Positions 4,639 through 55,550 of a DNA stretch of 64,000 bases are shown one piece after another. Position numbers and translations under genes: made by a program. The notes beneath the pieces are model-generated. The model saw only the letters and a list, made by a program, of their open reading frames with translations, had not been told where the DNA came from and searched no databases. Origin of the DNA: an uncultured Gammaproteobacteria bacterium. GTDB taxonomy: Bacteria > Pseudomonadota > Gammaproteobacteria > Pseudomonadales > JAHEGP01. Within the stretch, counting starts at the first letter, position 1, and every line of letters starts with the position of its first letter. Location of the stretch: NCBI GenBank assembly GCA_963722805.1, contig CAVROQ010000033.1, positions 198,619-262,618 of the forward strand, in the 5' to 3' direction.

Positions 4639-4683
4639 CTGTCTAGTACTCCCACCGCTAGTGCGTGTAGTAGCGGCTGTATA

Positions 4684-6999: not shown

Positions 7000-7013
7000 T
7001 GCGCGTCCTCCCG

Positions 7014-7973: not shown

Positions 7974-8021
7974 TACGGCTTTCGTTGCGCTTTGCGGCGG
8001 CTATTGGCGCGACAAGTGGAT

Positions 8022-9581: not shown

Positions 9582-9615
9582 GATAGCGATTCCTTTTATC
9601 CCCTGGTCTGCGCGT

Positions 9616-11652: not shown

Positions 11653-13644
11653 TCATTCGATAACGCGTATTTTCTCGGCAACCAATTCGGCTACATCGTA
11701 GACTTTTCGCGACTCACTGTGCCTGCTCGCGCTGGACGTTAACATCAGGTTGCAGAAAGAACATGAGGTGGCAATTTTGTCGGCTCCGGTGTCAAACGCT
11801 TCCTGTACCCTAACGTCGCTGATATGAGCGGTACCACCCTGGCCCCCCCAGTAGTTGCCGCCGCCGGCGCCGCAACAAAAGCTGTTTTCTTTGTTGCGTG
11901 GCATTTCTATCAGCTTGCCGACTGCGGCTACCAGCTTGCGCGGCGCATCCACAATGCCATTGTGCCGCGCCAGGTAGCAGGGGTCGTGAAAGGTAATCTT
12001 GTCGCCCTCATCAAAGGCTATGCTGAGGGCGCCCTCCTCTATCAGCTGATCGATAAATACCGAATGGGGAATGGTCTGCCAATCGGCGCCAAGCTCCGGG
12101 TAATAGCGATCAAAACTGTTGTAGCAATGGGCGCATACGGTCAACACTTTTTGTATCTGCTGCTCGCGAAACTGCTCGATGTTGGCTTCGGCAGTTTCGA
12201 CGAACTGCATTTCGTTGCCCATCATCTTGGCCGGGTCGCCGGTGCAGCGGGCCTCCTCCAGAATGCCATAGGAAACCCCTGCTGCATTGAGTATTTTGAC
12301 CATGGCGCGGGCAATTTCCTGGGTTCGCTCTTCGTAGATTACCGAGCAGCCAATCCACAGCAGGTACTCAGTATTGCCGGCTTGAAAAAACGGTACATCA
12401 AGGCCCTTGCGCCAGTCATCGGGATTGGCGCTGGTACCCACAAAGGGGTGGCCGCGGTTTTCCAGGTTGCGGTTGGCGGCCGCCATGGTGTCTGGCATTT
12501 GCGCCAGGTCCATCACATAGTGGCGACGAAACTCAACAATAATCTCGGCCGGATTGTTGCTTACCGGGCAGGCCTCGACACAGGCGGCGCAGGTGGTGCA
12601 GTTGAACATGGCCTCCATGCCAAGTACCTGTAGCAGCGAGTCGTCGTCAAACCTTTCCTGCTCCAGGTATTCGGCGCAGTTTGCCATGACTGTTTTGGGC
12701 GAGAGGTCCTTCCCGGTCTGCGCTGCCGGGCACACCTCGTAGCAGCGACCACACCATAGGCAGGCCGACGCATCCAGCAGGTTTTTCTGGGTCAGCTCGG
12801 CGAGCTTGCTGGCGCCAAACACGGGTTCTTGGTCCGACTCATCATCGTCGTCAAACTCGAAGCTTATCGGAGGCAGGTTGATGCCGTCGCGACGATGGGC
12901 AAAGGCTGCGTTGGCTGGCCCCAACAGCATGTGGGAAAAAGCGCTGTGGGCAATCAGGGCAATAAATCCGCAACCCATCAGGCCGTGTATCCACCACATA
13001 ATCTGGAAGCCGAGAATCGAGCCTTGCTCAGTGAAGGCCCCCTGCAGGCCGGCAGCTAGGGTATTGCCAATAAACTCGGCATTGTCGCCCGAGGGTTCAA
13101 ATGCCAGCCGGAAGCCCTCGGTGATATAGCCGGCAATGACAATGAGTAGCAGCGCGATCTCGCCATGTTCAAAGCCATGCCGGGTTTTACCACCGGCGGT
13201 GAGCCGCTCTGGTGGTGACAGGCGACGCAACAGAAAGAACGCGACCCCGGTAAACAGCATAATGCCGCCCAGCTCGCGGCCGAGCTTGACAAACAGGTAA
13301 GCAAACCAGCCTTCGTAAACGTCAATGCCGACAAAGCTGAAAGCGAATACCGCGTGACCAAATATCAGTAGCAAAGCACCAATAAACATAATGCCGTGGA
13401 AGCTGCCTGCAACCGGCCGCTGCAACAGCCGCTCGGTCATCAGTCCGCGCAGGACAAAAGTTTTCAGGTTGAAGTGCCTGGCCAGGGAAGCTCTGGTGAC
13501 GCTGCCGTCCGGGTTAAACCAGGGTTTGCCACGGGAAATTCGTTGCCAGTAACGTTGCAGTCCCAGCCAGAGGCTGGCAAACGCGCCGACCAGCAGCAGG
13601 CCAAGCAACACGTAGCTCAGCGTTGATATGCTATCCATGGACAA
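11653..13644 (-). CDS. Membrane-bound FeS oxidoreductase (NarI-like TM domain + 2x[4Fe-4S] + CCG domains), candidate ETF:quinone oxidoreductase
   Basis: 663 aa. About 5-6 N-terminal TM helices. Ferredoxin motifs CLWCGRCYEVCP and CTTCAACVEACP. HdrD/GlpC-type cysteine-rich motifs (HDPCYL..., FCCGAGGG). Downstream of etfA in the same orientation. Confidence 0.75.
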   Translation of the reverse strand: MSMDSISTLSYVLLGLLLVGAFASLWLGLQRYWQRISRGKPWFNPDGSVTRASLARHFNLKTFVLRGLMTERLLQRPVAGSFHGIMFIGALLLIFGHAVFAFSFVGIDVYEGWFAYLFVKLGRELGGIMLFTGVAFFLLRRLSPPERLTAGGKTRHGFEHGEIALLLIVIAGYITEGFRLAFEPSGDNAEFIGNTLAAGLQGAFTEQGSILGFQIMWWIHGLMGCGFIALIAHSAFSHMLLGPANAAFAHRRDGINLPPISFEFDDDDESDQEPVFGASKLAELTQKNLLDASACLWCGRCYEVCPAAQTGKDLSPKTVMANCAEYLEQERFDDDSLLQVLGMEAMFNCTTCAACVEACPVSNNPAEIIVEFRRHYVMDLAQMPDTMAAANRNLENRGHPFVGTSANPDDWRKGLDVPFFQAGNTEYLLWIGCSVIYEERTQEIARAMVKILNAAGVSYGILEEARCTGDPAKMMGNEMQFVETAEANIEQFREQQIQKVLTVCAHCYNSFDRYYPELGADWQTIPHSVFIDQLIEEGALSIAFDEGDKITFHDPCYLARHNGIVDAPRKLVAAVGKLIEMPRNKENSFCCGAGGGNYWGGQGGTAHISDVRVQEAFDTGADKIATSCSFCNLMLTSSASRHSESRKVYDVAELVAEKIRVIE

Positions 13645-13740
13645 CCCCGATCTGTGGCCGATAGTCGACCATTGTTACTGGTCTCGCTGCTGGTGTGCAC
13701 CGGCTTCTGACGTCGCTCATCGATGGCGACGGCAGAGCCT

Positions 13741-14934
13741 TTACCGCTTCAATATGGCAGCAGTCGCGTTGCCACCCAGCCCGAGGGTCTGGGCCAATCC
13801 TACCCTGGCGTTGGGTACCTGGCGTCCGCCTGCCTCGCCGCGTAATTGCCAGGTAAGTTCGGCAATCTGGAAGACACCCATGGCGGTGGTGGCTTCGCCG
13901 AAGGAAACGAACCCGCCGGATGGATTGATGGGCATGCGGCCAGTGGGTGCGGTTGCGCCAGACTCCAGCAATGATTCCGACTCTCCGGCACTGCACAGGC
14001 CCCATTCTTCGGGAAATGCCAGCTCGTAGTAACAGGTGTTGTCCTGGAGCTCGGTCAGGCTGATGTCCCCCGGCCCTATGCCAGCCTGCTCAAATGCTCG
14101 GGTAACGGCGAGTTGGGCTTCGGTGTGCAGGTTGGGGCATTGGGTGATCGGGTCGGCGAGGCTGCGCGGCAGCATATCGTCAAAGGTCATGGTGGCGACA
14201 GTGCTGCTTGCCACGGTAATCGGCTTGCCGGTGAACTGGCGCGCTTTTTCCTTTGAGCATACTACCGCCGCAGCTGCACCGTTAGAAACCGGGCATATCT
14301 GGAACAAGCGCAGGGGGTTGCTGACATAGGGTGACTGCATTACCTGCTCGAGGGATATTTCCTTTTGAAAACGAGCGTAGGGATTGTGGACCGAATTTTT
14401 GCGTGCTTTTACTGCTACCTGGGAAAATTGCTCTTCCGTAGTGCCGTGCTCGTACATGCGTCGACGGGCCAGGGTTGACCAGAACGAAGGACCCGGCATG
14501 CCGACACAGCGCTGTCGCAAAAACTCTGGATCGGTGGTTTCTTCAAGGCCTGAAGTCTGGATCATACCTTTGGGCATGACCTCTCCACCAACCACCAACA
14601 CCATATCGTAAACGCCGCCGGCGACCAGAGCATAGCCAATATTGAAGGCATTGCCACCGGCGGCGCAGCCGGCTGAGAGGTTGTACACCGGAATGCCGGT
14701 GGAGCCCATGTCTTCGACCACATCATTGCCATTGAGACCCCAGCCCTTGCCGCCGGAAAATCGTGAGCTGGCCGCAGAAACAGCCTGGATATGCTTCCAG
14801 CTGACGCCGGCATCTGCGAGGGCGGCGTCTACCGCGTGGCGACACAGGGCCTTGACAGACTTGTGGCCAACGATATTGTCGCCGGTCTTGCCAAAGCGGT
14901 GCATGCCCACGCCCAATACCGCAACTTCACGCAT
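13741..14934 (-). CDS. Thiolase-like protein, SCP-x/nonspecific lipid-transfer type
   Basis: 397 aa. N-terminal REVAVLGVGMHRFGK and C-terminal GGNATAAILKR are typical of DUF35-associated thiolases. Starts 4 bp after the DUF35 gene. Confidence 0.8.
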   Translation of the reverse strand: MREVAVLGVGMHRFGKTGDNIVGHKSVKALCRHAVDAALADAGVSWKHIQAVSAASSRFSGGKGWGLNGNDVVEDMGSTGIPVYNLSAGCAAGGNAFNIGYALVAGGVYDMVLVVGGEVMPKGMIQTSGLEETTDPEFLRQRCVGMPGPSFWSTLARRRMYEHGTTEEQFSQVAVKARKNSVHNPYARFQKEISLEQVMQSPYVSNPLRLFQICPVSNGAAAAVVCSKEKARQFTGKPITVASSTVATMTFDDMLPRSLADPITQCPNLHTEAQLAVTRAFEQAGIGPGDISLTELQDNTCYYELAFPEEWGLCSAGESESLLESGATAPTGRMPINPSGGFVSFGEATTAMGVFQIAELTWQLRGEAGGRQVPNARVGLAQTLGLGGNATAAILKR

Positions 14935-14937
14935 CCG

Positions 14938-15381
14938 TTAGCTCCCGTCGCTTGCCATTTGTTTAAACTTCCAGGTGGTGAACGCACTGTCACCCTCGTG
15001 ATACAGGGTGTCGATAAGCAGTTCTACCGTGGCGCCCACGCTTACGCAGTCGGGTTTGTCGACCATCTGCCCGATCAGCCGCAGGCCGCATTCGAGGTCA
15101 ACGACGCCCATTGCATAAGGCGTAAAAGGCTCATCGTACTTGTGTGGAGGTGGAGGCGGAAAGTCGGCTACCGCATAGCTCCAGAGCACGCCACGACCGC
15201 CAAAATCGCAGTCTTGCATATTCGGTTTGACGCAGTCCGGGTTATGACAGAAATCAGCGCGCGGAAAATAGGGCGTGTTGCAACCGGCGCACCTGGAACC
15301 ATGCAGCCTGGCGCCGTCGCTCTCTGAAAACAGCCCGTCGATGCAGGGTTGGCGCCCCTGTGGTGCAGTGGATTCCGACAT
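14938..15381 (-). CDS. DUF35 OB-fold/zinc-ribbon protein (BbsA/ChsH2-C-like thiolase partner)
   Basis: 147 aa. Zn-ribbon CAGCNTPYFPRADFCHNPDC followed by an OB-fold-like segment. Paired with the thiolase gene. Confidence 0.75.
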   Translation of the reverse strand: MSESTAPQGRQPCIDGLFSESDGARLHGSRCAGCNTPYFPRADFCHNPDCVKPNMQDCDFGGRGVLWSYAVADFPPPPPHKYDEPFTPYAMGVVDLECGLRLIGQMVDKPDCVSVGATVELLIDTLYHEGDSAFTTWKFKQMASDGS

Positions 15382-15395
15382 GAAAATGGCTCCTT

Positions 15396-16370
15396 TTACG
15401 CTGTCGCTTGTTTCACCAACTCGGGCAATATTTCGACGCAGTCACCGACAATCCCATAGCGGGCATAGCGATAGATGGCGGCGTCGGGATCCTTGTTGAT
15501 GGCAACGATAGTTTCGGCGGCGGAACACCCTGCCATGTGCTGGCTGGCACCAGAAATACCTGCGGCAATGTAGAGGCCGGGGCGGGTAATTTTGCCGGTC
15601 AGGCCTACCTGGCGTGACGAATCGATCCAGCCGTCGTCGACAATTGCTCTGGATGCGCCGTGCATGCCACCCAGGGCCATCGCCAGTTGCTCTACCAGCC
15701 GGTAATTCTCCGCCGCGCCAAGGCCGCGCCCGCCAGCGACAATAATGTCGGCGTCTTCCAGTCTTGGGCCATCGGCGCTGGCCGCAGAAGTCACCGTGAA
15801 ACGTTCTTCGGTCTGCTCCAGATCTACCACGACCGAACGCGCCTGCGGCGCAGGAGTTGCGGCAGCCATCGCTGCGCCAGCCATCGCTGCGCCAGCCGGC
15901 GCTGCGGAGACCAGCGAAATAACATTGACCGCTGCGCCGAGGCGGTAAACAGCGTGAGTGTCGCCACCGTATGCGCTGGCGGTAACCAGGAGGGCGTCGC
16001 CATCGCGCTTCAGGTCAAACACATTCATGCTAACGGGTATGTTAAGCCGTCCTGCCAGTCGCGGTGCGATCAGTCGGGTGCTTGGGCTCTGGTTGAACAG
16101 CACCGTGGCCGGCGAATACTGCTGGCAGTATTGTGCCAGTGCTGCCACCATTTTGTCGGAGCCAAAGTCGACAAGGTCCGGGTGTTCGATGGTGTCGAGG
16201 TTCGCAACGCCGCAGCGTGCCGCCATTTCCTGTGCTGCCGCGGACAAGGCACCAATCACCAACCAGCTCAGTTCGGCGCCGATCGACTGACTGTAAGCCA
16301 GTGCCAGGCTGAGTGACTCTTCGGTTCCGGCCTCGATAGTGTCACCCCAGGAGCAGAGTACAACGGTCAT
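15396..16370 (-). CDS. etfA: Electron transfer flavoprotein alpha subunit
   Basis: 324 aa. C-terminal FAD-binding signature VGLTGKITRPGLYIAAGISGASQHMAGC. No etfB gene is adjacent. Confidence 0.85.
   Translation of the reverse strand: MTVVLCSWGDTIEAGTEESLSLALAYSQSIGAELSWLVIGALSAAAQEMAARCGVANLDTIEHPDLVDFGSDKMVAALAQYCQQYSPATVLFNQSPSTRLIAPRLAGRLNIPVSMNVFDLKRDGDALLVTASAYGGDTHAVYRLGAAVNVISLVSAAPAGAAMAGAAMAAATPAPQARSVVVDLEQTEERFTVTSAASADGPRLEDADIIVAGGRGLGAAENYRLVEQLAMALGGMHGASRAIVDDGWIDSSRQVGLTGKITRPGLYIAAGISGASQHMAGCSAAETIVAINKDPDAAIYRYARYGIVGDCVEILPELVKQATA
15865..15906. repeat. In-frame 15-bp tandem duplication (about 2.8 copies) in the EtfA inter-domain linker
   Basis: GCCATCGCTGCGCCA repeated at 15865 and 15880, with a degenerate third copy. 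Encodes AGAAMAGAAMAAA. Confidence 0.7.
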
Positions 16371-16457: not shown

Positions 16458-16529
16458 AGTCTACTGGCAATGGCTGGACGCCTCCATCCGTGCTGGCATC
16501 AAATGCGGCCTTTGCCATCTCAAATTTGG
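16458..16529 (-). promoter_or_regulatory. Conserved promoter module, copy C: 33-bp motif, 33-bp spacer, TAGACT. Drives the etfA operon
   Basis: Minus strand reads CCAAATTTGAGATGGCAAAGGCCGCATTTGATG-N33-TAGACT. TAGACT lies 93 nt upstream of the etfA ATG. Spacing is identical to the copies at 17797 and 48297. Confidence 0.65.
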
Positions 16530-16709
16530 ACAGTAATATACCCGGCCATTGCTCCATGGGGCGGCTCGTTGGATGATGGGGGCAGTGTTCAATTTGCCCC
16601 TGTTCGGGAGGCTACCCGGGTGGCGTTTGCAGCGTGTTTACAGCTGGCGTTACTATACGGCTGCTCACTTTTGATCACCCACAAAACCCTATATAAAGAG
16701 GCGTGAAAG

Positions 16710-17678
16710 ATGGCGGACCAGGATTATTTCGTGGCACTTACCGAGTGTCATTTTATGAACCCCCAGACGATGTCGGAGATTGACTATTATCCCAATGTGC
16801 AGCGTTGGTGGGGCAGTGTAGATGGTGTGATGCGAGCGTGGTCCGGGCGTGATTTGCAGGGCGAGTGGCCGCATCCCATTGCTTCCGAATTAATCAAATA
16901 TATGGACATTGCCGGGGTCGATGTCACGTTTTGCCTGCGTGAGTCGATGCTGGATGTCACTGGTGGTGTCGTATCCTTGTCTACTAACGGATTCATGATG
17001 CAGCAAATCGAGCCCTATCCTGGTCGCATGTATCTCGAGGCCAATTGCGGCCCGGTTATCAAACGCGGTATCGAAGAGGCCAATTGGGAGCTTGAATACC
17101 TGGTCAAGGAGCGTGGTGCCAAGCTCTGCAAAGTCTACGCCCCGGAAGATGACGGCCCGCTCAACGATCGGCGGATGTGGCCATTTTATGAAAAGGCCTG
17201 CGAGTTGGGTGTACCGCTTACTGTTCATACCGGCCACAGCTATGTGGTGCCGCAGCCGGGCTCGTACTGTGATGTGCGGCAATTGGATGACATTTTGCTG
17301 GATTTTCCGGAGCTGCAGATTATTGCCTACCATGCGGGATGGCCGGATACCGAGCATTTGATTGGCCTGTGCGGCAAACATCGCAATTTGTATATGAGTT
17401 TGTCGGGTGTCATTGGTTGGTACGAGCGGGCTCCGTACCGGGGGTATCACGCGATAGGAACGGCGTTGCAGTGGATGCCTTCAGAGAAGATAGTGTTGGG
17501 CCTGGACTTGCCTTTCGATGATACCAAGCGGGTGGTGGACTATATTCGCAACCTGGACATGCCGGAGGAGCTTCAGGAAAAGTGGGGTTACCAGCAGCTG
17601 AGCAATAGTGACAAGGCCAATATCCTGGGCTTGAATCTGGCGCGGCTTACCGGCATTGAGCCCACCAAACGGGTATAG
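16710..17678 (+). CDS. Amidohydrolase-2 family metal-dependent hydrolase/decarboxylase (TIM barrel)
   Basis: 322 aa. LTVHTGH and IIAYHAGWP metal-ligand-like blocks. C-terminal NILGLNLARL is typical of PF04909-type proteins. Confidence 0.7.
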   Translation: MADQDYFVALTECHFMNPQTMSEIDYYPNVQRWWGSVDGVMRAWSGRDLQGEWPHPIASELIKYMDIAGVDVTFCLRESMLDVTGGVVSLSTNGFMMQQIEPYPGRMYLEANCGPVIKRGIEEANWELEYLVKERGAKLCKVYAPEDDGPLNDRRMWPFYEKACELGVPLTVHTGHSYVVPQPGSYCDVRQLDDILLDFPELQIIAYHAGWPDTEHLIGLCGKHRNLYMSLSGVIGWYERAPYRGYHAIGTALQWMPSEKIVLGLDLPFDDTKRVVDYIRNLDMPEELQEKWGYQQLSNSDKANILGLNLARLTGIEPTKRV

Positions 17679-17796
17679 CAAAGCTGCAGTTGAGCGGGCA
17701 ATCCGGCAGGGTTTTGGCAATCGTCTTGCCGGCCGCTGACATAAAGCGCTACAGCGGCAACGCCAGCATGAGTGCGTCAGCTAAAAGCGGTGGCGG

Positions 17797-17868
17797 CCAA
17801 ATTTGAGACGCTATAGGCCGCATTTGATGTTTGTCGTGCTAGAGGCACAAAAAATTTGTCTTTAGACT
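17797..17868 (+). promoter_or_regulatory. Conserved promoter module, copy A: 33-bp motif, 33-bp spacer, TAGACT. Drives the small-ORF/acyl-CoA ligase operon
   Basis: CCAAATTTGAGACGCTATAGGCCGCATTTGATG-N33-TAGACT. TAGACT lies 114 nt upstream of ATG 17977. Confidence 0.65.
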
Positions 17869-17976
17869 GCGTTGTAAGCAGGGCATGGGGTGCGAACGGA
17901 ACTGACAGTTCCTGTCCGACGACAATAGTGATCAGGTCCCGTTACAGACGAGCGGGCAGGCATAAGGTGAAAGCGT

Positions 17977-18285
17977 ATGACACAGTTAAAGGCAGGCAGC
18001 CGTATGCGCAGCTCGGTTTGCGCGACCGAGGTGATGGTGATTGCCGCTCCCGCTGCTGACACAGAAGTGAGTTGTGGTGGCGCGGTGATGATTGCCATGA
18101 CGGAGCAGCCCGCCGGTGGTGAAGTTGACGCCGAGCATGCCGGCGGGACCTTGCTGGGCAAGCGCTATGTTAACGAGGCCGGCGACCTGGAGTTACTCTG
18201 TACCAAGCCCGGGGACGGTTCTTTGTCGGCTAACGGTGTGACTTTGTTGCACAAAGAAGCCAAGCCCCTGCCGTCGTCGGATTAG
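17977..18285 (+). CDS. Small hypothetical protein (102 aa) with an internal two-fold repeat
   Basis: First ORF after promoter copy A. Two related segments (VCATEVMVIAAPAADTEVSCGGAVM and GDLELLCTKPGDGSLSANGVTLL). No recognisable family. Confidence 0.4.
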   Translation: MTQLKAGSRMRSSVCATEVMVIAAPAADTEVSCGGAVMIAMTEQPAGGEVDAEHAGGTLLGKRYVNEAGDLELLCTKPGDGSLSANGVTLLHKEAKPLPSSD

Positions 18286-18356
18286 TCCGGATACTGCAGG
18301 CGGTTACGCGTTTGCTGGTGCAGTATTGGGGCTGTGCGGTCCACGGGGACTTGAGC

Positions 18357-19856
18357 ATGAATATAATGATGTTGCTGGAGATGGCGTCCCAGGGTTTTGG
18401 CGAGCGTATTGCTTTTACCCACGGTGACGATTCACTCACATACAAGGAGTTGTATCACGCAGCCGGTGCTGCCGCTGCCTATATTCGTGAGTCGGGCTGT
18501 AGTTATGTGGCGATGCTGGATGTCAGCAGTCTGGCGGCGCCGGTGGCTTTGTTTGGCAGCGCCTGGGCGGGGGTCGCCTATGTGCCGATCAACTATCGCC
18601 TCGCCGGGCATGAAATCAAGGCTTTGTTGGAGCGGGTGGAACCGGCGCTATTGATTACCGGGGCCGATCAACAGCATGAATTCAGTGGTCACGCCAACAT
18701 CCATCCATTGCAGCGCGATAAGTTTCTCGCTCTGGCTCGCAACGGTAATCCGCCCGGGCCGGACTGGTCAATGGACGCTGAGGATACCGGGGTGTTGCTA
18801 TTCACCAGTGGCACTACCGGTGCCCCCAAGGCTGCGCTGCTGCGCCAGAAGCATCTGGTATCTTATATTCTTGGCTCCGTAGAATTCATGTCGGCGGCAG
18901 AAGACGATGCGGCGTTAGTGTGTGTGCCGCCCTATCATGTGGCGGGCATTTCTGCGATGTCGAGTTCTGTATATTCCGGGCGAAGGGTCGTACAGCTGTC
19001 CGATTTTGAGCCCCGCGCCTGGCTCGACCTGGTGCGGCAAGAACGCATCAGCAATGCTTTTGTGGTGCCGACTATGTTGGCGCACATTATCGAAACGGTT
19101 GAGCGCGACGGCGATACGGCGCTACCCAGCCTGCGTTCGCTGGCTTACGGTGGCGGCAAGATGCCGCTATCGGTTATTGAGCATGCGATGCGCCTGTTCC
19201 CCAATGCTGAATTCACTAACGCTTATGGTTTAACCGAAACCAGCTCTACGGTTGCGGTGCTGTGCCCGCAGGATCATCGCCTTGCCGCAGCCAGTGATAA
19301 CCCCGCCATCAGGCGACGTTTGGTGTCGGTGGGCCAGGCCTTACCGGGGGTTGAGGTGCAAATCCGGGATGATGACGGCACACCCCTGGGAGCGGGCCAG
19401 CGCGGCGAAATCTTTGTGCGTGGTGAGCAGGTTTCGGGTGAATATGTGGGGACTGGCAGTCTGCTCGATGCCGCAGGCTGGTTTCCTACCCGGGATGCGG
19501 GTTCGATGGACGCAGACGGTTACTTGTTTCTGGAGGGCCGGGCTGACGATGTCATTGTTCGCGGCGGTGAGAATATGTCGCCGGGTGAAATCGAGGATGT
19601 TTTGCTGGAACATCCGGGGGTTGCCGATGTGGCTATCGTCGGGATTCCGGACGAGCAGTGGGGTGAGGCGGTGGCAGCCGCGGTGGTGCTCAAACCCGGG
19701 CAGTGCGCCGATGCTGCTGCTTTGCAGCAATGGATTAAAGATCGTATGCGCAGCTCCCGGGTACCGAATGTGTTGATGTTCTGGCCGGAGCTTCCCTATA
19801 ACGAAACGGGTAAGTTGTTGCGACGGGTGGTGAAGGCTGAGTTGGCGAAAGCCTGA
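18357..19856 (+). CDS. AMP-dependent acyl-CoA synthetase/ligase
   Basis: ORF 18312..19856 trimmed to ATG 18357. AMP-binding motif LLFTSGTTGAPKAALL. Later YGLTETS, GWFPTRD and GKLLRR motifs of adenylate-forming enzymes. Confidence 0.85.
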   Translation: MNIMMLLEMASQGFGERIAFTHGDDSLTYKELYHAAGAAAAYIRESGCSYVAMLDVSSLAAPVALFGSAWAGVAYVPINYRLAGHEIKALLERVEPALLITGADQQHEFSGHANIHPLQRDKFLALARNGNPPGPDWSMDAEDTGVLLFTSGTTGAPKAALLRQKHLVSYILGSVEFMSAAEDDAALVCVPPYHVAGISAMSSSVYSGRRVVQLSDFEPRAWLDLVRQERISNAFVVPTMLAHIIETVERDGDTALPSLRSLAYGGGKMPLSVIEHAMRLFPNAEFTNAYGLTETSSTVAVLCPQDHRLAAASDNPAIRRRLVSVGQALPGVEVQIRDDDGTPLGAGQRGEIFVRGEQVSGEYVGTGSLLDAAGWFPTRDAGSMDADGYLFLEGRADDVIVRGGENMSPGEIEDVLLEHPGVADVAIVGIPDEQWGEAVAAAVVLKPGQCADAAALQQWIKDRMRSSRVPNVLMFWPELPYNETGKLLRRVVKAELAKA

Positions 19857-24452: not shown

Positions 24453-25454
24453 ATGTCTAGCCCAACCCAATCCACCAATAAAATCACTTTCTATATTGCC
24501 CGTATGGCACAGCGGGGTTTTAGCAGTGAGCAAGTGCTGGAGGGTTCGGGGCTGGCGCTGGATGAGGTGCAGGGGGAGCAATACCGCCCCTCGCCAGATC
24601 AATACCGGGTCATTATTGGCAATATGTTGCGCCTCTCTGGCGACCGCTTTCTGGGTATCGGCATCGGTTCAGAATTTAAAATCAGCGAGCTGGGTGTGCT
24701 GGGCTATGCGGCGCTGAGCAGCGCCAATCTCGCTCAGTCGCGTGAGCTGTTTATTAAGTACGACGCGCTGGTTGAGCACATACTGACCCCGAATACTGAG
24801 GTCGGCAACGGCAAATGGGTGACCGAATTGGTGGAGACCTTCCCGCTGGGGGAGATCCTGCCATTTGCAGTGGAGGAGTTTGTCAGTCGCACCGTGGGCC
24901 TGGCGTCGAGCCTGACCAATCGCCCTTTTCCGGTGCTGGAGTTGCGCCTTAGCTATCCGCCACCCCCGGAGCTGGACGCCTATCGCCGTGCATTTGACTG
25001 CCCCATGCTGTTTAACCAGCCGCGCAACCTGGTGTACTGGGACATCAACTGTCTTGCGGACCCGATAAGCCTCGCCAACCAAGATGTGTTCAAGCTGTGT
25101 GAACAGCAGTGCCAGATGTTGGTGAATAAGCTGGCCGACGGCAGCTTGCTGTCGAGCAATATTCGGGACGCGCTGGTGAAAACACCTGGCGAATTTCCTT
25201 CACTGGAGGCCATGGCGCGGCGGCTGAAAATGGGCTCTCGCACACTGCGTCGCAGACTGGTGAAAGAAAACCTGACCTATCAGCAGATTCTTGACGACAC
25301 CCGCAAAGACCTTGCCATCCAGTATCTGGAGTATACCTCGCTGACACCCAAGGAGATCGGCTACCTGCTGGGCTATAACAGCGTCAGCAATTTTCGCCGT
25401 GCGTTCAAGGGCTGGACCGGTAAGAAACTGACCGACTATCGCCAGAATGGCTAG
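24453..25454 (+). CDS. AraC-family transcriptional regulator
   Basis: 333 aa. C-terminal double-HTH region (SLEAMARRLKMGSRTLRRRL...YLLGYNSVSNFRRAFKGWTG). N-terminal ligand/dimerisation domain. The only regulator gene in the window. Confidence 0.85.
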   Translation: MSSPTQSTNKITFYIARMAQRGFSSEQVLEGSGLALDEVQGEQYRPSPDQYRVIIGNMLRLSGDRFLGIGIGSEFKISELGVLGYAALSSANLAQSRELFIKYDALVEHILTPNTEVGNGKWVTELVETFPLGEILPFAVEEFVSRTVGLASSLTNRPFPVLELRLSYPPPPELDAYRRAFDCPMLFNQPRNLVYWDINCLADPISLANQDVFKLCEQQCQMLVNKLADGSLLSSNIRDALVKTPGEFPSLEAMARRLKMGSRTLRRRLVKENLTYQQILDDTRKDLAIQYLEYTSLTPKEIGYLLGYNSVSNFRRAFKGWTGKKLTDYRQNG

Positions 25455-32471: not shown

Positions 32472-32709
32472 GACACTGTCTGCAGCCATTTTCGTGCATC
32501 CATTTCTCGGCTTTCTTCCCCTTGTGGCCGCGTCAACCAGGGCCCACCCGACCCAAAGCTATTGGCTAAAAAGCTGTCCTCTTCTGATATTCTTTAGGCC
32601 GCTATCGCTGCGTCGCCTGGATCAAAATTTGTCGCTATCTCGCTAGAATCTCAGTCTCCCGGTGGTCTTAACGAGCTGTGGAAAGACCTGCAGTCGGAGG
32701 TGTCACGCC

Positions 32710-46734: not shown

Positions 46735-46796
46735 GGGGTGGCTCTCCTGCAACTGGTGATCCGGTTTGCGCTGTTCATCGCCGCAACCACAGGATG

Positions 46797-48203: not shown

Positions 48204-48296
48204 GGTACTACTCTCGCAGGGATGCCCGGGAGCATCGAAATTTACCCGCTTGGCCTGACAAAATAAACGCCTCCGCGCGCCGCTGTCGCCAGATGT

Positions 48297-48368
48297 CCAA
48301 ATTTGAGATGCCGTAGGCCGTAATTGAGTCCTGCACCGGTAGGAAGCACCCCTGATAGTTATTAGACT
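48297..48368 (+). promoter_or_regulatory. Conserved promoter module, copy B: 33-bp motif, 33-bp spacer, TAGACT. Drives the nine-gene CoA-transferase operon
   Basis: CCAAATTTGAGATGCCGTAGGCCGTAATTGAGT-N33-TAGACT. TAGACT lies 117 nt upstream of ATG 48480. Confidence 0.65.
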
Positions 48369-48479: not shown

Positions 48480-49670
48480 ATGGGCACAGTGCTCGATGAT
48501 GTTGTCGTACTGGATTTGACGAACAGTTTCTCTGCCGCGCTGACTGCCGCATTCCTGGCAGATTTTGGCGCCCAGGTGATCCGCCTCGATCGCATACCCC
48601 AGGCGCCGCGGCCGGCCGGGGACACTGGCTGGAATTGCCAGGCAGACCTGATTCACCGCAACAAACAAAGTCTGGCACTGGATATCAGCGCTGCGCAGGG
48701 CCGCAAGCTATTGCTTGAAACCGCATTGCGGGCCGATGTCTTGCTGACCGATTGGTCGCTGCAGGAATTACAGTCACTGGGGCTGGATTATCCCAGCCTG
48801 GAGGGCCCGCGTCCCGATCTGGTCTATGCGCGGGTTTCCGGATTTGGTCCGCAGGGGCCAGACAGTGAGCTGCCCCTGATCGATGAATTAGCGGCCGCGC
48901 GCACCGGCATGATGCCGATTCTGCCCCAGCCCGGTGAACCGCCGGTGTATACCGGGGCTGGTGCCATGCATGCCACGGTGTTACTGGGCTTTGGGGTTGT
49001 CACCGCGCTGCTGTATCGCCAGCTCAGCGGTGAGGGGCAGTGTGTGGATACCTCCCTGTTTGCGGCGAATATGTACGGCGCCAGCCTGGATTTACAGGCC
49101 TTTCTTGCTATCGGCCATGGCGATCGCCTGCTCAACCCGATTTCACGGCTGGATGTATCCAACCCCATGTCTGGCGCGCTTTACCACAGCGCTGATGGGC
49201 GCTGGGTAACCCTCACGATGCCGGATACCGATCGTTGGTGGCCCGACCTCGCCGAGGCGCTGGGGCTTGCGGTTGACGATGAGCGCTTCAATTCCCACGA
49301 CAAACGCTGTGAGCACAATCGAGTCGCCCTGATTAATACCCTGGAGGAGGGGTTTGCCAAACAGCCCGCCAGTCACTGGCGCAAGCTATTCCAGCACAAG
49401 CAGATGTCGGCGGATGTGATCGAGCAGTTTGACTATCCTGCCAATGATCCCCAGGTGCGGGACAATCGCTATATCGTCGAACTCGATCATCCCAGCTTTG
49501 GAAAAATCGACAGCCTCGGTTTTCCACTTTATATGAGCGAAACACCGGCCCGGCTTGAAAGCCTGGCGCCCTGCGTTGGCCAGCACAGCCAGAAGGTGTT
49601 GCAGGAACTTCTGGGTTATTCGCTGGACCAGATACACCAATTTAAAAGTAGCGGCGTAGTCGCGTTATAA
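48480..49670 (+). CDS. Family III CoA-transferase paralog lacking the conserved catalytic Asp
   Basis: 396 aa. VVVLDLTNSFSAALTAAFLADFGAQVIRLD. The segment aligned to the Asp block reads YTGAGAMHATVLLGFGVV...SGEGQC, with Ala at the Asp position. Confidence 0.8.
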   Translation: MGTVLDDVVVLDLTNSFSAALTAAFLADFGAQVIRLDRIPQAPRPAGDTGWNCQADLIHRNKQSLALDISAAQGRKLLLETALRADVLLTDWSLQELQSLGLDYPSLEGPRPDLVYARVSGFGPQGPDSELPLIDELAAARTGMMPILPQPGEPPVYTGAGAMHATVLLGFGVVTALLYRQLSGEGQCVDTSLFAANMYGASLDLQAFLAIGHGDRLLNPISRLDVSNPMSGALYHSADGRWVTLTMPDTDRWWPDLAEALGLAVDDERFNSHDKRCEHNRVALINTLEEGFAKQPASHWRKLFQHKQMSADVIEQFDYPANDPQVRDNRYIVELDHPSFGKIDSLGFPLYMSETPARLESLAPCVGQHSQKVLQELLGYSLDQIHQFKSSGVVAL

Positions 49671-49685
49671 CCCAGGAGAGGTGCG

Positions 49686-50897
49686 GTGACTAAAAAAGCT
49701 CTGGAAGGGGTCAGGGTGCTGGATCTTACGGTTTGGTTTCAGGGGCCGGTAGCGGCGCAATACCTGGCGGACTTTGGCGCAGACGTGATCAAGGTTGAGC
49801 GGCCCAAGGGTGGTGACCAGGCCCGCGGCGTTCGCAGTATCAAGGCACTGGAAATTGGTGATTGGAATCAGTACTTTCTGGTGATCAACCGCAACAAAAA
49901 GAGCATTGCGATCGATCTCAAAAAGCCTGAAGGCCAGCAAATCATGTATCGGCTGGTGGAAAAATCGGATGTGTTCCTGTCGAACCTGGCGCCGGAAATG
50001 CTCGTGGCCTGGGGCTTGTCCTACGACAAGCTGAAGGAGGTAAATCCCGGGATTATATACGCCACCAATACCGGCTACGGCCGCTTTGGCGGTGTATCCA
50101 AGCCGTCATTCGACATGACCGTGCAGGCGCTAACCGGCATTATGGCGCGGCTCGGCGAGCCGGGGCAGCCGCCTATCTATCTCGGTATGGGTTCAGGGGA
50201 TGCCTTTGGCGGCATACTGGCGGCTTTCGGTATTTTGCTGGCCTTGTATAAGCGCAATCGCAGCGGCGAGGGCCAGTGCCTGGACGCTTCGCTGTACGGC
50301 GCCCAGCTCTATCTTGCGGCACCCATGTTGCAGTCCTTTCTGGCGGGTAATAAAGGCGCTGCCCTGCAGCAGTCGCGCAGGGACGTTGCCAACCCCTTGT
50401 GGAATCTCTATCCCGCTGCTGACAAGTGGGTTTATATCTGCGAGCCCAACCAGGACCAGCGATTTGAGGCGCTGTGCACAGCGCTGGATGCCCCGGGACT
50501 TGCCAGCGACCGGAATTTTGACAGCAGTGAGAAACGGGCCGTTAACAATCGCGCTCTAATCGCAGTTTTAGATGAGCTAACAAGAAAACAAAGTTGCGAA
50601 GAGCTAATGTCGGCGCTGACGTCGCAGGAGCTTGTTGCCCAACCGATAAATAACCTGGCGGATGTTATTGCCGACGAGCAGGCCTGGCAGAACAACTATT
50701 TTATGAAGGCCTATTGCGAAGAGGTTAAACGCGAAGTTGATGTACGCGGCCTGCCTGTGACCCTGTCAAAAACACCCGGTCAAATTAATACCCTGGGGCC
50801 GCAATTGGGCCAGGATACTGAAATACTGATGATGGAATTATTGCAATACGAGTGGGAAGAAATCGAAGCCTTGAAAGCGGTGGGCGCAATTCCCTGA
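49686..50897 (+). CDS. Family III CoA-transferase
   Basis: 403 aa, GTG start with AGGAGAG upstream. LEGVRVLDLTVWFQGPVAAQYLADFGADVIKVERPKGGD. Asp block GMGSGDAFGG...SGEGQC. Confidence 0.85.
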   Translation: MTKKALEGVRVLDLTVWFQGPVAAQYLADFGADVIKVERPKGGDQARGVRSIKALEIGDWNQYFLVINRNKKSIAIDLKKPEGQQIMYRLVEKSDVFLSNLAPEMLVAWGLSYDKLKEVNPGIIYATNTGYGRFGGVSKPSFDMTVQALTGIMARLGEPGQPPIYLGMGSGDAFGGILAAFGILLALYKRNRSGEGQCLDASLYGAQLYLAAPMLQSFLAGNKGAALQQSRRDVANPLWNLYPAADKWVYICEPNQDQRFEALCTALDAPGLASDRNFDSSEKRAVNNRALIAVLDELTRKQSCEELMSALTSQELVAQPINNLADVIADEQAWQNNYFMKAYCEEVKREVDVRGLPVTLSKTPGQINTLGPQLGQDTEILMMELLQYEWEEIEALKAVGAIP

Positions 50898-50918
50898 TGG
50901 CAGAGGAATGAGAATAAT

Positions 50919-51809
50919 ATGAGTTGGAGTGATTGGAATGAGGTGGTCGGAGACGGCCTCGATAATTTCAAGGAGATTCAATACCAAAAGAAAAGCCATC
51001 TGCAGCTGGGCGGCGCAATAGCGCGGATCTCCTTGAATAAGCCTGAAAAGATGAACACCCTGACCCTGGCAACCGTGGACGAGATGTTTCGTGCTTTTTA
51101 CGATGCCAATCACGATCCGCTGATCGGGGTGATTGTTATTGCAGCCAAGGGCAAGCACTTCGGTGCCGGTGGCGATGTCGATTGGGAGCGCTGGGGTTTG
51201 CGCGAAGCATTTTACAATCGCTATCCGCACAATCGGCTGATGCGTATGTCGCGCAAGCCTGTCATTGCCCAGGTGCAGGGCTATTGTATTGCCGGTCATA
51301 ATCATATGGCCTATTGCTGCGATTTTACGATTGCCGCCGACAATGCGATTTTTGGCCAGGCCGGCCCGCGAGTGTCATCGCCGGCAGACGGGTTTTTTGT
51401 GCCCTACCTGACCAAAGTGGTGGGGGCGAAAAAGGCCCGGGAATTATGGATGCTCTGTCGCAAGTACCAGGCAGATGAAGCACTCGCCATGGGGCTGGTC
51501 AATACCGTGGTGCCGCTGTCCCAGCTGGAGGCAGAAGTTGACCAGTGGTGTGAGGAAATGCTGTCCCTCAGCCCGGGTTGCCTTGAGGTACTCAAGGCCG
51601 CTTTTGACCAGGAGATGGATGGCTATAAGGAGTCCTGTGTGACCTCGGCGGCAATGTATCCCGACTGGTTCGATATGCCCGAGGGTAAGGAAGGTGGCGC
51701 GGCTTTTGTTGCCAAGCGCAGGCCCGAGTTTTGGGATATCCGCCAGCGCGAGTCCCAGATGAGGCAGCAGTTGCTGGACGAATACGATGTGCTGCATGGT
51801 GGGGAATAG
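50919..51809 (+). CDS. MenB/BadI-subfamily crotonase (1,4-dihydroxy-2-naphthoyl-CoA synthase-like)
   Basis: 296 aa. DFTIAADNAIFGQAGPRVSSPADG and KKARELWMLCRKYQADEALAMGLVNTVVPL closely track the MenB signature blocks as I recall them. Confidence 0.75.
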   Translation: MSWSDWNEVVGDGLDNFKEIQYQKKSHLQLGGAIARISLNKPEKMNTLTLATVDEMFRAFYDANHDPLIGVIVIAAKGKHFGAGGDVDWERWGLREAFYNRYPHNRLMRMSRKPVIAQVQGYCIAGHNHMAYCCDFTIAADNAIFGQAGPRVSSPADGFFVPYLTKVVGAKKARELWMLCRKYQADEALAMGLVNTVVPLSQLEAEVDQWCEEMLSLSPGCLEVLKAAFDQEMDGYKESCVTSAAMYPDWFDMPEGKEGGAAFVAKRRPEFWDIRQRESQMRQQLLDEYDVLHGGE

Positions 51810-51853
51810 CTGTTGGCTGCAATGCCCTAATTTGTTCTCACCCGGGGGTTTCA

Positions 51854-53017
51854 GTGTTTAAAGACAAGGCGTGTATTGTGGGCATTGGCGAGACAGCCTA
51901 CTGTCGCAAACCCGGCTCGGGAATGTCTGAGGAGGCTTTGCAGTTACGCGCCTCGGTGGCGGCCTTGATTGACGCCGGTCTTACCGGGCAGCAAATTGAC
52001 GGCATATTGGCGTTTCCCAATGTGGGCAAATCCGAGGCATTCGCCGCTAGCCTGGGTTGTGACAATTTGCGCTTCGCCGCCACTATCCACATGGGCGGCG
52101 CTGCACCGCTGGCCTCGCTGCGGATGGCGGCCATCGCTGTGGCTTCAGGCGCTGCCAACTATGTGTTGATTCCCGGGGGTTGGAATGGCTATTCGGGTGC
52201 CCGGGTGCGGCAGACAGTGTCTAACGATAAAAACTCGATTCCGGGAGGCGCCATTGCCTGGGATTACTATATGCCGCAGGGCCTGACTGCACCGCCCCAG
52301 TGGTATGCGCTGATGGCCCGGCGCCATATGCACGATTTCGGGACTAGCCACGAGCAGTTAGGCGCGGTTGCGGTGGCGATGCGCAAACATGCCCAGCTCA
52401 ACCCCGCTGCCTTAATGTACGGCAAGCCCCTGGATATCGAACAGTACCTCGCCTCCCCGATGCTGGCCGACCCCTATCGTATTAATGACTGCTGTCTGGA
52501 AACCGATGGCGCTGCCGCATTTATTGTGACCACAGTAGAGCGGGCCAATGATCTTGGCCGGCAGCCAATCTATATTATGGGCGCCGCCGCGGGACAGCCC
52601 TACCCGGCAGACGATTTTACCAACCGTCGAGATTTTCACCGCAACGGTTTGTCGATTGCCGCCCCCGAAGCATTTGCAATGGCCGGTATCAAACCGGGCG
52701 ATGTCGATTTTGCCCAGATCTATGACTGCTTTACCTTTGAGGTGATCCAGCAACTCGAGGAAGCGGGTTTCTGTGAGCGCGGTGACGGTGGCGCTTTTGT
52801 CGAGAATGGCGGGATTGAACTCAAGGGCCAGCTACCGGTGAATACCCACGGAGGACTGCTTTCTGAAGCCCACTCCCTCGGCATAGGTCATGTGGTCGAG
52901 GCCGTAAAACAGCTGCGCGGAGATTGCGGCCAACGCCAGGTGTTAAATGCCGAGATCGGCGTTGTCACCGGCTGGGGCGATTTTGGCGACGGCAGTATTG
53001 CTATTTTAAGGCGTTGA
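51854..53017 (+). CDS. Thiolase-like protein (SCP-x type), second copy
   Basis: ORF trimmed to GTG 51854. ACIVGIGETAYCRKPG...NTHGGLLSEAHSLGIGHVVEAV. Followed by a DUF35 gene. Confidence 0.8.
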   Translation: MFKDKACIVGIGETAYCRKPGSGMSEEALQLRASVAALIDAGLTGQQIDGILAFPNVGKSEAFAASLGCDNLRFAATIHMGGAAPLASLRMAAIAVASGAANYVLIPGGWNGYSGARVRQTVSNDKNSIPGGAIAWDYYMPQGLTAPPQWYALMARRHMHDFGTSHEQLGAVAVAMRKHAQLNPAALMYGKPLDIEQYLASPMLADPYRINDCCLETDGAAAFIVTTVERANDLGRQPIYIMGAAAGQPYPADDFTNRRDFHRNGLSIAAPEAFAMAGIKPGDVDFAQIYDCFTFEVIQQLEEAGFCERGDGGAFVENGGIELKGQLPVNTHGGLLSEAHSLGIGHVVEAVKQLRGDCGQRQVLNAEIGVVTGWGDFGDGSIAILRR

Positions 53018-53031
53018 AAAAGGTGGGCAAA

Positions 53032-53445
53032 ATGGACCGGGAATATGACAAGCCACTACCGGGGCTCGACGGTTTAAACGGGCAGTTTTATGCCTTTTGC
53101 AAACAGCAGGATCTGCATTTCCAGCGCTGCAGCAACTGTCAACACTTTCGCCACGTTCCGCGGGAAGTCTGCGCGGTATGCAACTCCTTCGAGTGGGATT
53201 GGGTGCGCGCCAGTGGCAGAGGCAAGGTATACAGCTGGACCGTTATCGAGCGAGCGTTGCACCCGGCGTTTGTTGCTGACACGCCGCTGGCGCCGGTGAT
53301 CGTTGAAATGGAAGAGGGTGTGCGCTTGCTGGCAAATATGCTCGATTGCCCGCCGGCTGAACTCGCTATCGATATGCCGGTGACCATTGCCTACGAGGCG
53401 GTCACTGAAGACCTGACGCTGCCGCGCTTCCGGCGCATTGAGTAA
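53032..53445 (+). CDS. DUF35 OB-fold/zinc-ribbon protein, second copy
   Basis: ORF trimmed to ATG 53032. Zn-ribbon CSNCQHFRHVPREVCAVCNS followed by an OB-fold segment. Confidence 0.75.
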   Translation: MDREYDKPLPGLDGLNGQFYAFCKQQDLHFQRCSNCQHFRHVPREVCAVCNSFEWDWVRASGRGKVYSWTVIERALHPAFVADTPLAPVIVEMEEGVRLLANMLDCPPAELAIDMPVTIAYEAVTEDLTLPRFRRIE

Positions 53446-53462
53446 ATGGACGGAGCATTGCT

Positions 53463-54242
53463 ATGGATTTGAAACTGCCAGAAACTTTTAGTTACGAGAA
53501 GCGCGGGCATATCGCCATTATGACGATCAATCGTCCCCAGGCGATGAATGCCTTCACCGCTGAAATGCTGGCGGCCATGGATGCCTGCTTTGAAGATTTC
53601 CAGCACGATGATGAACTGTGGGTAGCGATACTGACCGCCACTGGCGATAAATCGTTTTGTTCCGGCATGGACCTGGGGGAGGCTATTCCGCTGCTCAATG
53701 CCGGCGATGAAATGGGCTATGAGGATCATACCAAGCGCCCGTTTTCTGATGTATTCAAGCCCATCATTGCCGCCGTAAACGGTTTTTGCATCGCCGGCGG
53801 TATGGAGTTTATGCAGGGAACTGACATTCGTATTGCCGTCGAACACGCCACTTTCGGGCTCGGCGAAGTGCGCTTCGGATTGATTCCCACCGGCGGTACC
53901 CACGTACGGCTGCCACGCCAAATACCCTGGGCGGTGGCCATGGAATTGCTGTTGACCGGCGAGAATATATCAGCCCAGCGCGCATATGATATTGGCTTGA
54001 TCAACAAGATTGTGGCAGCGGAAGAGCTGCTGGAGGAGGCGCTGAAGTTGGCCGAAAAAATCTGCCGCAATAGCCCGCTGGCAGTGCGCACCGCCAAGGA
54101 AATAGCCGTGCGCCAGGCCAATCTTGAACCCGGTTTCGTGTTGGAAAAAGCCATTGGCGCAAGGGTATTCGGTTCCTATGACGCCCAGGAAGGACCCAAA
54201 GCATTTATGGAAAAGCGCAAACCTGAATTCAAGGGCCGCTAG
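53463..54242 (+). CDS. Enoyl-CoA hydratase/isomerase (crotonase)
   Basis: 259 aa. IAIMTINRPQAMNAF...TATGDKSFCSGMDL...AAVNGFCIAGGMEF...FMEKRKPEFKG. Confidence 0.85.
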   Translation: MDLKLPETFSYEKRGHIAIMTINRPQAMNAFTAEMLAAMDACFEDFQHDDELWVAILTATGDKSFCSGMDLGEAIPLLNAGDEMGYEDHTKRPFSDVFKPIIAAVNGFCIAGGMEFMQGTDIRIAVEHATFGLGEVRFGLIPTGGTHVRLPRQIPWAVAMELLLTGENISAQRAYDIGLINKIVAAEELLEEALKLAEKICRNSPLAVRTAKEIAVRQANLEPGFVLEKAIGARVFGSYDAQEGPKAFMEKRKPEFKGR

Positions 54243-54282
54243 CGCCGCCAATGCTTACCATTGATATAGGGCGTAGGGCACT

Positions 54283-55545: not shown

Positions 55546-55550
55546 GTCGG

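Follow-up and report, generated by a model that had tools for sequence, protein, structure and literature searches.

A conserved 72-bp promoter module with a two-turn direct repeat at operons of a putative anaerobic steroid-degradation cluster, and a candidate AraC-family activator

In a 64-kb stretch of DNA from an uncultured gammaproteobacterium (contig CAVROQ010000033.1; hereafter the window), we analysed a 72-bp unit that stands in three full copies ahead of three operons. Each copy consists of a box built on a direct repeat and of the hexamer TAGACT, which lies exactly 33 nt 3' of the box in all three. The window carries a probable orthologue of SRAH, the steroid ring-A hydrolase, has the gene content of the pathway and finds its relatives among putative steroid degraders, which together point to an anaerobic (2,3-seco) steroid ring-degradation cluster in an uncultured relative of Halieaceae. 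We consider the 72-bp unit to be, rather probably, a conserved activator-dependent promoter module of the sigma70 type that belongs to the 2,3-seco steroid regulon and is bound by a dimer of an AraC-family protein encoded in the same cluster. Positions given without a locus number refer to the window; numbers from L064 onward denote related contigs or loci, with 10 kb visible on either side of each related locus.

The initial annotation of this DNA had described two 33-mers that align without gaps on opposite strands (16529->16497 on the minus strand and 17797-17829 on the plus strand), each followed after exactly 33 nt by TAGACT, with 93 and 114 nt from there to the start codons of etfA and of an operon of a small open reading frame (ORF) and a ligase. 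All of these positions and distances proved correct. The module had been assigned to these two operons: both carry it, but the number of operons is three, with a third copy at 48297-48329, and a degenerate candidate lies at 32578-32610 (Table 1). A degenerate form of the 33-mer has no matches in dinucleotide-preserving shuffles of the window, against the three real copies. The annotation had also proposed a search with a position weight matrix (PWM). Ours has 36 columns, was built from 12 sites and covers the box only, with TAGACT outside the model; its null maximum is 13.1 over 0.9 million positions. It returns the three full copies and one weak candidate in the window, with no further strong copies in the 64 kb, and strong sites in Pseudohalioglobus lutimaris and Denitratisoma oestradiolicum, all of them at catabolic operons. 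A model of the single repeat unit, for which the null set (63 loci, with chance matches selected for GGCCG-N3-TTGA) is slightly inflated, finds no isolated units in the other intergenic DNA of the window. The candidate fourth copy is weak: it keeps the skeleton TGTCC...TGA.AT...TAGGCCG in the gap 5' of an acyl-coenzyme A (acyl-CoA) dehydrogenase gene (probable ATG 32711), and no confirmation of it was found in relatives.

The box has the consensus tGTCCAAAwwTGArAT-N5-tAGGCCGgAwTTGAyg. Its strongest internal symmetry is a direct repeat with an offset of 21 (score 16.0); the next best scores 12.2, and the best inverted arrangement ~9.9 after halving for double counting. The two AWTTGA half-sites 21 bp apart that had been reported at first have the right offset, but the repeated unit is not the hexamer: it extends over 12 nt, GnCCnnAWWTGA, and is present as U1 (consensus GTCCAAAWWTGA) and U2 (consensus GGCCGGAWTTGA), 21 bp or two helical turns apart. 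Relatives carry AAATGA, AATTGA or ATATGA in place of ATTTGA. A third unit is absent at +42. A palindromic or dyad reading of the box was rejected: the only such symmetry is the 4-bp CAAA...TTTG, and the internal palindrome CAAATTTG is lost in relatives, which carry CAAAAATG. The sequence TTGATG inside the box was also considered as a -35 element and rejected, as no -10 element lies at a suitable distance.

TAGACT has the T-A-x-x-x-T skeleton of the sigma70 -10 element, and we infer that it serves as one. On a start site assumed 7 nt after TAGACT, U1 occupies -80..-69 and U2 -59..-48, and the whole site extends over -81..-46. An ungapped alignment of 14 non-redundant sites places TGG at -35..-33 and TTAGACT at -13..-7. 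TAGACT is identical at all six positions in 13 of the 14 sites, and the T-G-G of the hexamer at the -35 position is kept in 10. A purine-rich hexamer 17 nt before TAGACT had been noted at the outset; TGGAGG and TAGAGG are indeed in place there, but relatives keep only T-G-G or T-R-G. These two hexamers and the TAGGAA of copy 3 were all rejected as -35 elements by a generic sigma70 scan. A poor -35 at every copy, with the site wholly upstream of the core promoter, argues for activation. Two further stretches are semi-conserved, and the two-repeat model explains neither of them: C.ATGC (-45..-40, just 3' of the box) and WTWGYY (-21..-16, 2 nt upstream of TTAGACT). A sigma70-like match at 16512-16539 on the plus strand (TTGCCA, 16 nt, TAATAT) overlaps box copy 1 on the opposite strand and points to SRAH; it is not kept in relatives.

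The box and its spacing precede orthologous operons in relatives with 57-90% protein identity, from gamma- to betaproteobacteria. The strain contigs L064-L072 are identical to the window across the boxes and hence uninformative, and L074 stops short of the promoters. In L073, which has the same gene order and an AraC-family protein with 75% identity, the box with TAGACT at +33 is found at both the etfA and the ligase promoters, with 33-nt spacers that bear no relation to the window's own. The gammaproteobacterium P. lutimaris has a site with a PWM score of 43.4 upstream of etfA, and in D. oestradiolicum, a betaproteobacterial anaerobic steroid degrader, a site scoring 31.8 lies between the etf operon and the orthologue of the AraC-family gene; in both species TAGACT follows at +33. 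A diverged copy in a Thauera-type locus, GGCCGTTTTTGA-N9-GGCCGCATTTGA, is located 5' of the CoA-transferase operon, with TAGACT at +34.

We scanned metagenomes for the box alone, using the pattern CCAAAWWTGARA-N6-AGGCC-NN-AWWTG, which was first checked on five known copies. The scan gave 24 matches. Exactly 33 nt downstream, 10 of them have TAGACT and 2 have TAGAGT, where chance would give ~1 in 4096 per match. By BLASTP to the window proteins, these sites precede etfA orthologues (L080, L088, L089), the ligase operon (L079, L087) and the CoA-transferase operon (L077, L090), and the orthologous promoters of the last keep TAGACT. Another box lies 5' of the flavin adenine dinucleotide (FAD) subunit, AtcC-like, of a xanthine-dehydrogenase-type molybdoenzyme in L086, and L085 has a full box with TAGAGT (4172-4243, minus strand) 5' of split hydantoinase/oxoprolinase-like genes. 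Weaker boxes, with a good U1 and a poor U2, precede three-subunit molybdoenzyme operons in L085 (10712, minus strand) and in Denitratisoma (L099, 15203, minus strand); in Denitratisoma TAGACT lies at +45, not +33. Every strong site is intergenic and aimed at a catabolic operon: etfA in 7 taxa, the ligase in 2, the CoA-transferase operon in 3-4, the AtcC-like gene in L086 and the hydantoinase-like genes in L085. Locus L078 has the box (1656-1685, minus strand) and the upstream NMO gene as in L077, but the DNA downstream is unrelated and without TAGACT. Either the CoA-transferase operon underwent a natural rearrangement or deletion, or the assembly is chimeric.

The mean pairwise identity among the 14 non-redundant sites is 0.27 in the upstream flank, 0.76 in the box, 0.43 in the spacer, 0.98 in the hexamer and 0.27 in the downstream flank. 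Among the 7 orthologous etfA promoters the identity of the hexamer is 1.00. The retention of box and hexamer while the spacer and flanks were randomised is typical of a cis-regulatory module and excludes a recent repeat or mobile element. In the metagenomic relatives L088 and L089 and in P. lutimaris (L098), the genes for SRAH, the small ORF, the ligase, the AraC-family protein and an 812-aa CoA-transferase follow one another directly, and SRAH and the small ORF have no box between them. The window (17679-17976) and L073 have at this place a gap of 200-300 nt with an extra box-promoter, and XdhC, MobA and other genes between the ligase and AraC-family genes. The extra box-promoter suggests that the promoter module was duplicated or inserted in that lineage.

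The candidate box-binding protein is an AraC/XylS-family regulator (Table 1). Its gene had been called the sole regulator gene in the window, and this was borne out: it is the only one recognisable by Pfam among ORFs of at least 150 aa, with four ORFs giving no Pfam match. The N-terminal domain of the protein belongs to PF12625 Arabinose_bd (E = 1.5e-33, residues 22-204), and its C-terminal domain with a pair of helix-turn-helix (HTH) motifs to PF12833 HTH_18 (E = 3.1e-15) and PF00165 (E = 5.1e-06); residues 251-331 align with the DNA-binding domain of GadX (3mkl), and the nearest structures are 5CHH and VirS. Its NCBIfam bit scores (GliR 132 against a cut-off of 570, QhpR 124 against 250, CypR 110 against 500) are far under the equivalog cut-offs, which places it outside these three groups. 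The best named relatives are in P. lutimaris (64% identity) and Seongchinamella sediminis (70%).

The box is present in all seven loci that have an orthologue of the AraC-family gene inside a catabolic cluster (the window, L073, L088, L089, L098, L099 and L102). It is absent from all five control loci, namely L100 and L101, with homologues of 58-59% identity in unrelated contexts, and L103-L105, with SRAH or molybdoenzyme genes and no AraC-family gene nearby. The link between box and AraC-family gene drawn in the initial annotation is supported by this co-occurrence, but not by the recognition helices: RTLRRRLV and VSNFRRAF are identical in all eight proteins compared, those from box-less contexts included, so that they carry no specificity signal and the comparison did not discriminate. 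The invariance of the helices fits a conserved specificity. Judging from sequence and gene context, the AraC-family protein probably binds the box.

In the mechanism we propose, a dimer of this protein would occupy the box with one monomer on each repeat. The protein would sense androgen or a ring-A-cleaved intermediate and recruit sigma70 RNA polymerase to promoters that are too weak alone. This would co-induce the electron-transfer flavoprotein (ETF)/aldolase, CoA-ligase and CoA-transferase/beta-oxidation operons, to which relatives would add the genes of the AtcABC-type molybdoenzyme and those that are hydantoinase-like. We put forward more tentatively that the PF12625-type protein senses androgen or a 2,3-seco intermediate directly and, acting through the box, turns on the entire oxygen-independent regulon for steroid ring degradation, the AtcABC-type molybdoenzyme included. 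If this is true, anaerobic steroid catabolism would have in the protein and the box its first defined transcriptional regulator and operator, common to beta- and gammaproteobacteria, and the invariance of TAGACT would mean that the hexamer is read by more than sigma70.

Several observations weigh against this assignment. The co-occurrence sample is small (12 loci), and its loci are not phylogenetically independent; the view of 10 kb to either side of each locus leaves room for an unlinked regulator; and the recognition helices are the same with and without a box. The AraC/XylS geometry beside a weak -35 that had been suggested for the module holds for the direct repeats two turns apart and for the weakness of the -35, but other parts of it do not. 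With TAGACT as the -10 and the start site assumed above, the proximal repeat U2 stops ~12 bp upstream of the -35 position, and within a unit ~8-9 bp separate the centres of GnCC and WTGA, less than the spacing of roughly one turn between box A and box B of XylS. TAGACT itself is invariant across five operon types and two proteobacterial classes, a degree of conservation beyond what recognition by sigma70 obviously calls for.

The limited view around each locus, the undiscriminating helices, the departure from classical AraC/XylS sites and the four window ORFs without family assignment would all be compatible with a module that is a real steroid-regulon promoter whose box is read by a regulator encoded elsewhere, the AraC-family protein of the cluster controlling something else. 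We regard this as unlikely: the AraC-family protein, the sole recognisable regulator, accompanies the box in 7/7 clusters from two proteobacterial classes, the box in Denitratisoma sits in the divergent region between the AraC-family gene and etf, and direct repeats 21 bp apart are typical of AraC/XylS dimers and not of the palindrome-binding TetR, IclR, GntR or LysR regulators.

The conservation of the core promoter suits another arrangement, in which the box is an accessory upstream site and either an alternative sigma factor reads TGG ... WTWGYY ... TTAGACT or TAGACT forms a second element for protein binding. TAGACT is nearly invariant, further semi-conserved positions lie at -21..-16 and -35..-33, and the neighbouring SRAH promoter has ordinary hexamers (TTGCCG/TATATT). 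This arrangement is nevertheless improbable, in that TAGACT has the sigma70 skeleton and its 17-nt spacing to the T-G-G hexamer fits sigma70, the window holds no sigma or anti-sigma gene, and no likeness to the extracytoplasmic function (ECF) sigma consensus was found in the sequence. No GG-N10-GC (sigma54) arrangement was seen by eye, nor was an FNR- or IHF-like site.

Quite improbable, too, is a role of the box as an upstream operator mainly for repression, by looping or occlusion, rather than activation. Against it speak the position of the site, entirely upstream of the core promoter, the poor -35 of each copy and the lack of a conserved second operator overlapping the -10 or the start site, although the Denitratisoma box does stand between the regulator gene and the etf operon, and ligand-free repression is within the range of AraC-family proteins: APR1 of Acinetobacter venetianus, which is AraC-type, senses long-chain alkane and activates almA, and represses itself in the absence of its substrate (PMC11784139). 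The initial annotation had also allowed for a generic repeat, and we consider both a repeat without regulatory role, whether a dispersed or mobile element or the result of a recent duplication, and a transcribed RNA element very improbable: three near-identical copies do occur in one window, copy 2 apparently inserted only in the window/L073 lineage, but the flanks are at a random level of identity, all copies are intergenic and oriented to a gene, orthologous positions are kept across classes with randomised spacers, the metagenome-wide scan gave the box in this gene context only, and the window has no Rfam matches and the copies no common or stable fold (folds differ between them, with z = -0.8, -1.5 and +0.1).

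The activator reading can be compared with known systems. Direct repeats with a periodicity of 21 bp, as measured for the box here, are characteristic of XylS. At araBAD I1-I2 of Escherichia coli, AraC uses direct-repeat half-sites two helical turns apart, bound by a dimer in the inducing state beside a weak -35. There, I2 overlaps the -35, arabinose is bound by a cupin-type domain of AraC, and a distant O2 site serves for looping; we found no evidence for looping here, unlike at araBAD. In the class I promoters of MarA, SoxS and Rob, AraC-family sites are centred upstream of the -35 (roughly -50 to -70) and do not overlap it. The proximal unit of the box, which does not reach the -35, is more like this class I placement. 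MarA, SoxS and Rob, however, act as monomers on a single asymmetric 20-bp site, whereas here there are two phased units and a large N-terminal domain.

XylS/Pm of the TOL plasmid resembles the proposed system in having two homologous direct repeats, a proximal and a distal site, each bound by one monomer through two recognition helices, and in being an activator-dependent catabolic promoter whose regulator senses a pathway substrate (PMC5481539). It differs in the repeats of XylS, TGCA-N6-GGNTA, and in a proximal site that overlaps the -35 and the RNA polymerase site, whereas the unit here is GnCCnnAWWTGA and ends ~12 bp short of the -35 if TAGACT is the -10. The PF12625 domain of the window protein is also not of the XylS type, and the sequences are unrelated. 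By its best NCBIfam matches the protein is similar to CypR, QhpR and GliR, PF12625-type AraC activators of hydrophobic-substrate catabolism; its substrate class differs from theirs and from that of their functional analogue APR1, and no operator architecture comparable to the box could be retrieved for CypR, QhpR or GliR. The control of a steroid regulon through a common operator motif at several operons would be shared with KstR/KstR2 and other TetR-type repressors and with the LuxR-type TeiR of Comamonas testosteroni (PMC7264893). These regulators serve aerobic 9,10-seco pathways, mostly as TetR-family repressors on palindromes that overlap promoters, in contrast to the anaerobic pathway, AraC-family candidate and direct repeat upstream of the core promoter described here.

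SRAH was identified in 2025, and its homologues in P. lutimaris and S. sediminis mark these species as putative gammaproteobacterial degraders (PMC11780191). In Thauera GDN1, atcABC is induced by testosterone, with no regulator named (PMC9980454). Neither a regulator nor a promoter of the pathway is mentioned in these two studies (PMC11780191, PMC9980454) or in the Denitratisoma genome preprint, and the regulators named in the main review (TeiR, TetR-type, KstR) are those of the aerobic pathway, with none for 2,3-seco (PMC7264893). In the literature searched there was no report linking AraC to Denitratisoma, Sterolibacterium, Steroidobacter or atcA, and no description of the box or of an operator module. 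The box and the linked AraC-family gene are the first candidate operator and regulator for the anaerobic steroid pathway, which has been worked out enzymatically only recently. In mechanism, an AraC/XylS-style activator-dependent promoter is an ordinary type of bacterial catabolic control. With both at hand, the induction mechanism can be put directly to the test in strains that grow in culture (D. oestradiolicum, P. lutimaris, Thauera/Aromatoleum). The box also provides a sequence signature for assigning further ring-A/ring-B genes, already flagging the 102-aa ORF, the hydantoinase-like genes and the ETF/Fe-S module, and its parts are usable for an androgen-responsive biosensor.

Table 1. Positions of the promoter modules, the candidate regulator and neighbouring features in the window
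Feature	Position	Strand	Details
Box copy 1 (TGT + CCAAATTTGAGATGGCAAAGGCCGCATTTGATG)	16497..16532	-	33-mer 16529->16497; directed at etfA; PWM score 51.8
Box copy 1, repeat units	U1 GTCCAAATTTGA 16531->16520; U2 GGCCGCATTTGA 16510->16499	-	
Hexamer at -35 position, copy 1, TGGAGG (weak)	16481..16486 (16486->16481)	-	17 nt upstream of TAGACT
TAGACT, putative -10, copy 1	16458..16463 (16463->16458)	-	93 nt before etfA ATG, counted from the T of TAGACT
Box copy 2 (cGG + CCAAATTTGAGACGCTATAGGCCGCATTTGATG)	17794..17829	+	33-mer 17797-17829; U1 17795-17806; U2 17816-17827; PWM score 44.3
Hexamer at -35 position, copy 2, TAGAGG (weak)	17840..17845	+	17 nt upstream of TAGACT
TAGACT, putative -10 of small-ORF/CoA-ligase promoter	17863..17868	+	114 nt before ATG at 17977
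Box copy 3 (TGT + CCAAATTTGAGATGCCGTAGGCCGTAATTGAGT)	48294..48329	+	33-mer 48297-48329; U1 48295-48306; U2 48316-48327; PWM score 49.8
Hexamer at -35 position, copy 3, TAGGAA (weak)	48340..48345	+	
TAGACT, putative -10 of CoA-transferase operon promoter	48363..48368	+	117 nt before ATG at 48480
Candidate degenerate copy 4 (TGTCCTCTTCTGATATTCTTTAGGCCGCTATCGCTG, 33 nt, TAGAAT)	32575..32649	+	box 32578-32610; TAGAAT 32644-32649; PWM score 16.3 (null maximum 13.1)
AraC/XylS-family regulator, candidate box-binding activator	24453..25454	+	Pfam, PDB, NCBIfam, synteny, co-occurrence
Operon A	11653..16370	-	ETF-alpha-like (etfA) 15396-16370; DUF35/ChsH2-OB 14938-15381; thiolase-like lipid-transfer/aldolase-type 13741-14934; Fer4 + CCG iron-sulfur oxidoreductase 11653-13644; Pfam, NCBIfam
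Operon B	17977..19856	+	102-aa ORF 17977-18285; AMP-forming acyl-CoA ligase 18312-19856; Pfam
Operon C	48480..58501	+	two family-III CoA-transferases, enoyl-CoA hydratase, thiolase-like protein + DUF35, hydratase, two more CoA-transferases, Amidohydro_3; Pfam
Amidohydrolase-2 gene, probable SRAH orthologue	16710..17678	+	between copies 1 and 2; PF04909
SRAH promoter, sigma70-like	TTGCAG 16627-16632, 18 nt, TACTAT 16651-16656	+	relatives: TTGCCG-N16-TATATT; distance to box varies
Electron-transfer module genes	2218-10221	-	MtrC/MtrF-like multihaem, MtrB/PioB porin, MtrA-like, 584-aa multihaem with EB_dh domain, NapC/NirT (CymA-like)

The product of the SRAH candidate is 81% identical to an amidohydrolase of Sterolibacterium sp. 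and 70-80% identical to proteins across the beta, gamma and delta classes, and P. lutimaris locus L098 has the same gene order around SRAH as the window. The gene has a conserved, more canonical promoter of its own at a variable distance from the box, and thus appears to be expressed independently of the box. The acidic 102-aa ORF is always found 5' of the CoA ligase, with 59-70% identity in L073, L079, L080, L088 and L089; it matches no Pfam family, is without a PDB relative and was rejected as a rival regulator, having neither an HTH motif nor a family. The AtcABC-type molybdoenzyme was not found in the 64-kb window, which contains just XdhC and MobA/MocA-like maturation genes. Among the related loci, L085, L099 and L105 have three-subunit molybdoenzyme operons, and L086 has an AtcC-like gene.

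The ETF-alpha-like gene of operon A has no neighbouring beta subunit. The sole ETF-beta-like gene (45937-46752, minus strand) is 30 kb off, beside an NMO-family gene divergent from box copy 3. A porin-cytochrome module for extracellular electron transfer adjoins the steroid cluster (Table 1), as it does in the strain contigs L064 and L065, and one may ask whether metal or electrode respiration is linked to the oxidation of steroids. In addition to many more CoA-transferases and acyl-CoA dehydrogenases, the window holds a BaiCD/OYE-type flavoenzyme, a KstD-like dehydrogenase, XdhC and a MobA/MocA-like gene. At least 11 family-III CoA-transferase genes lie within 28621-57068, one of them coding for an 812-aa double-domain form. 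This density is unusual and fits the shuttling of CoA esters that has been proposed for ring degradation.

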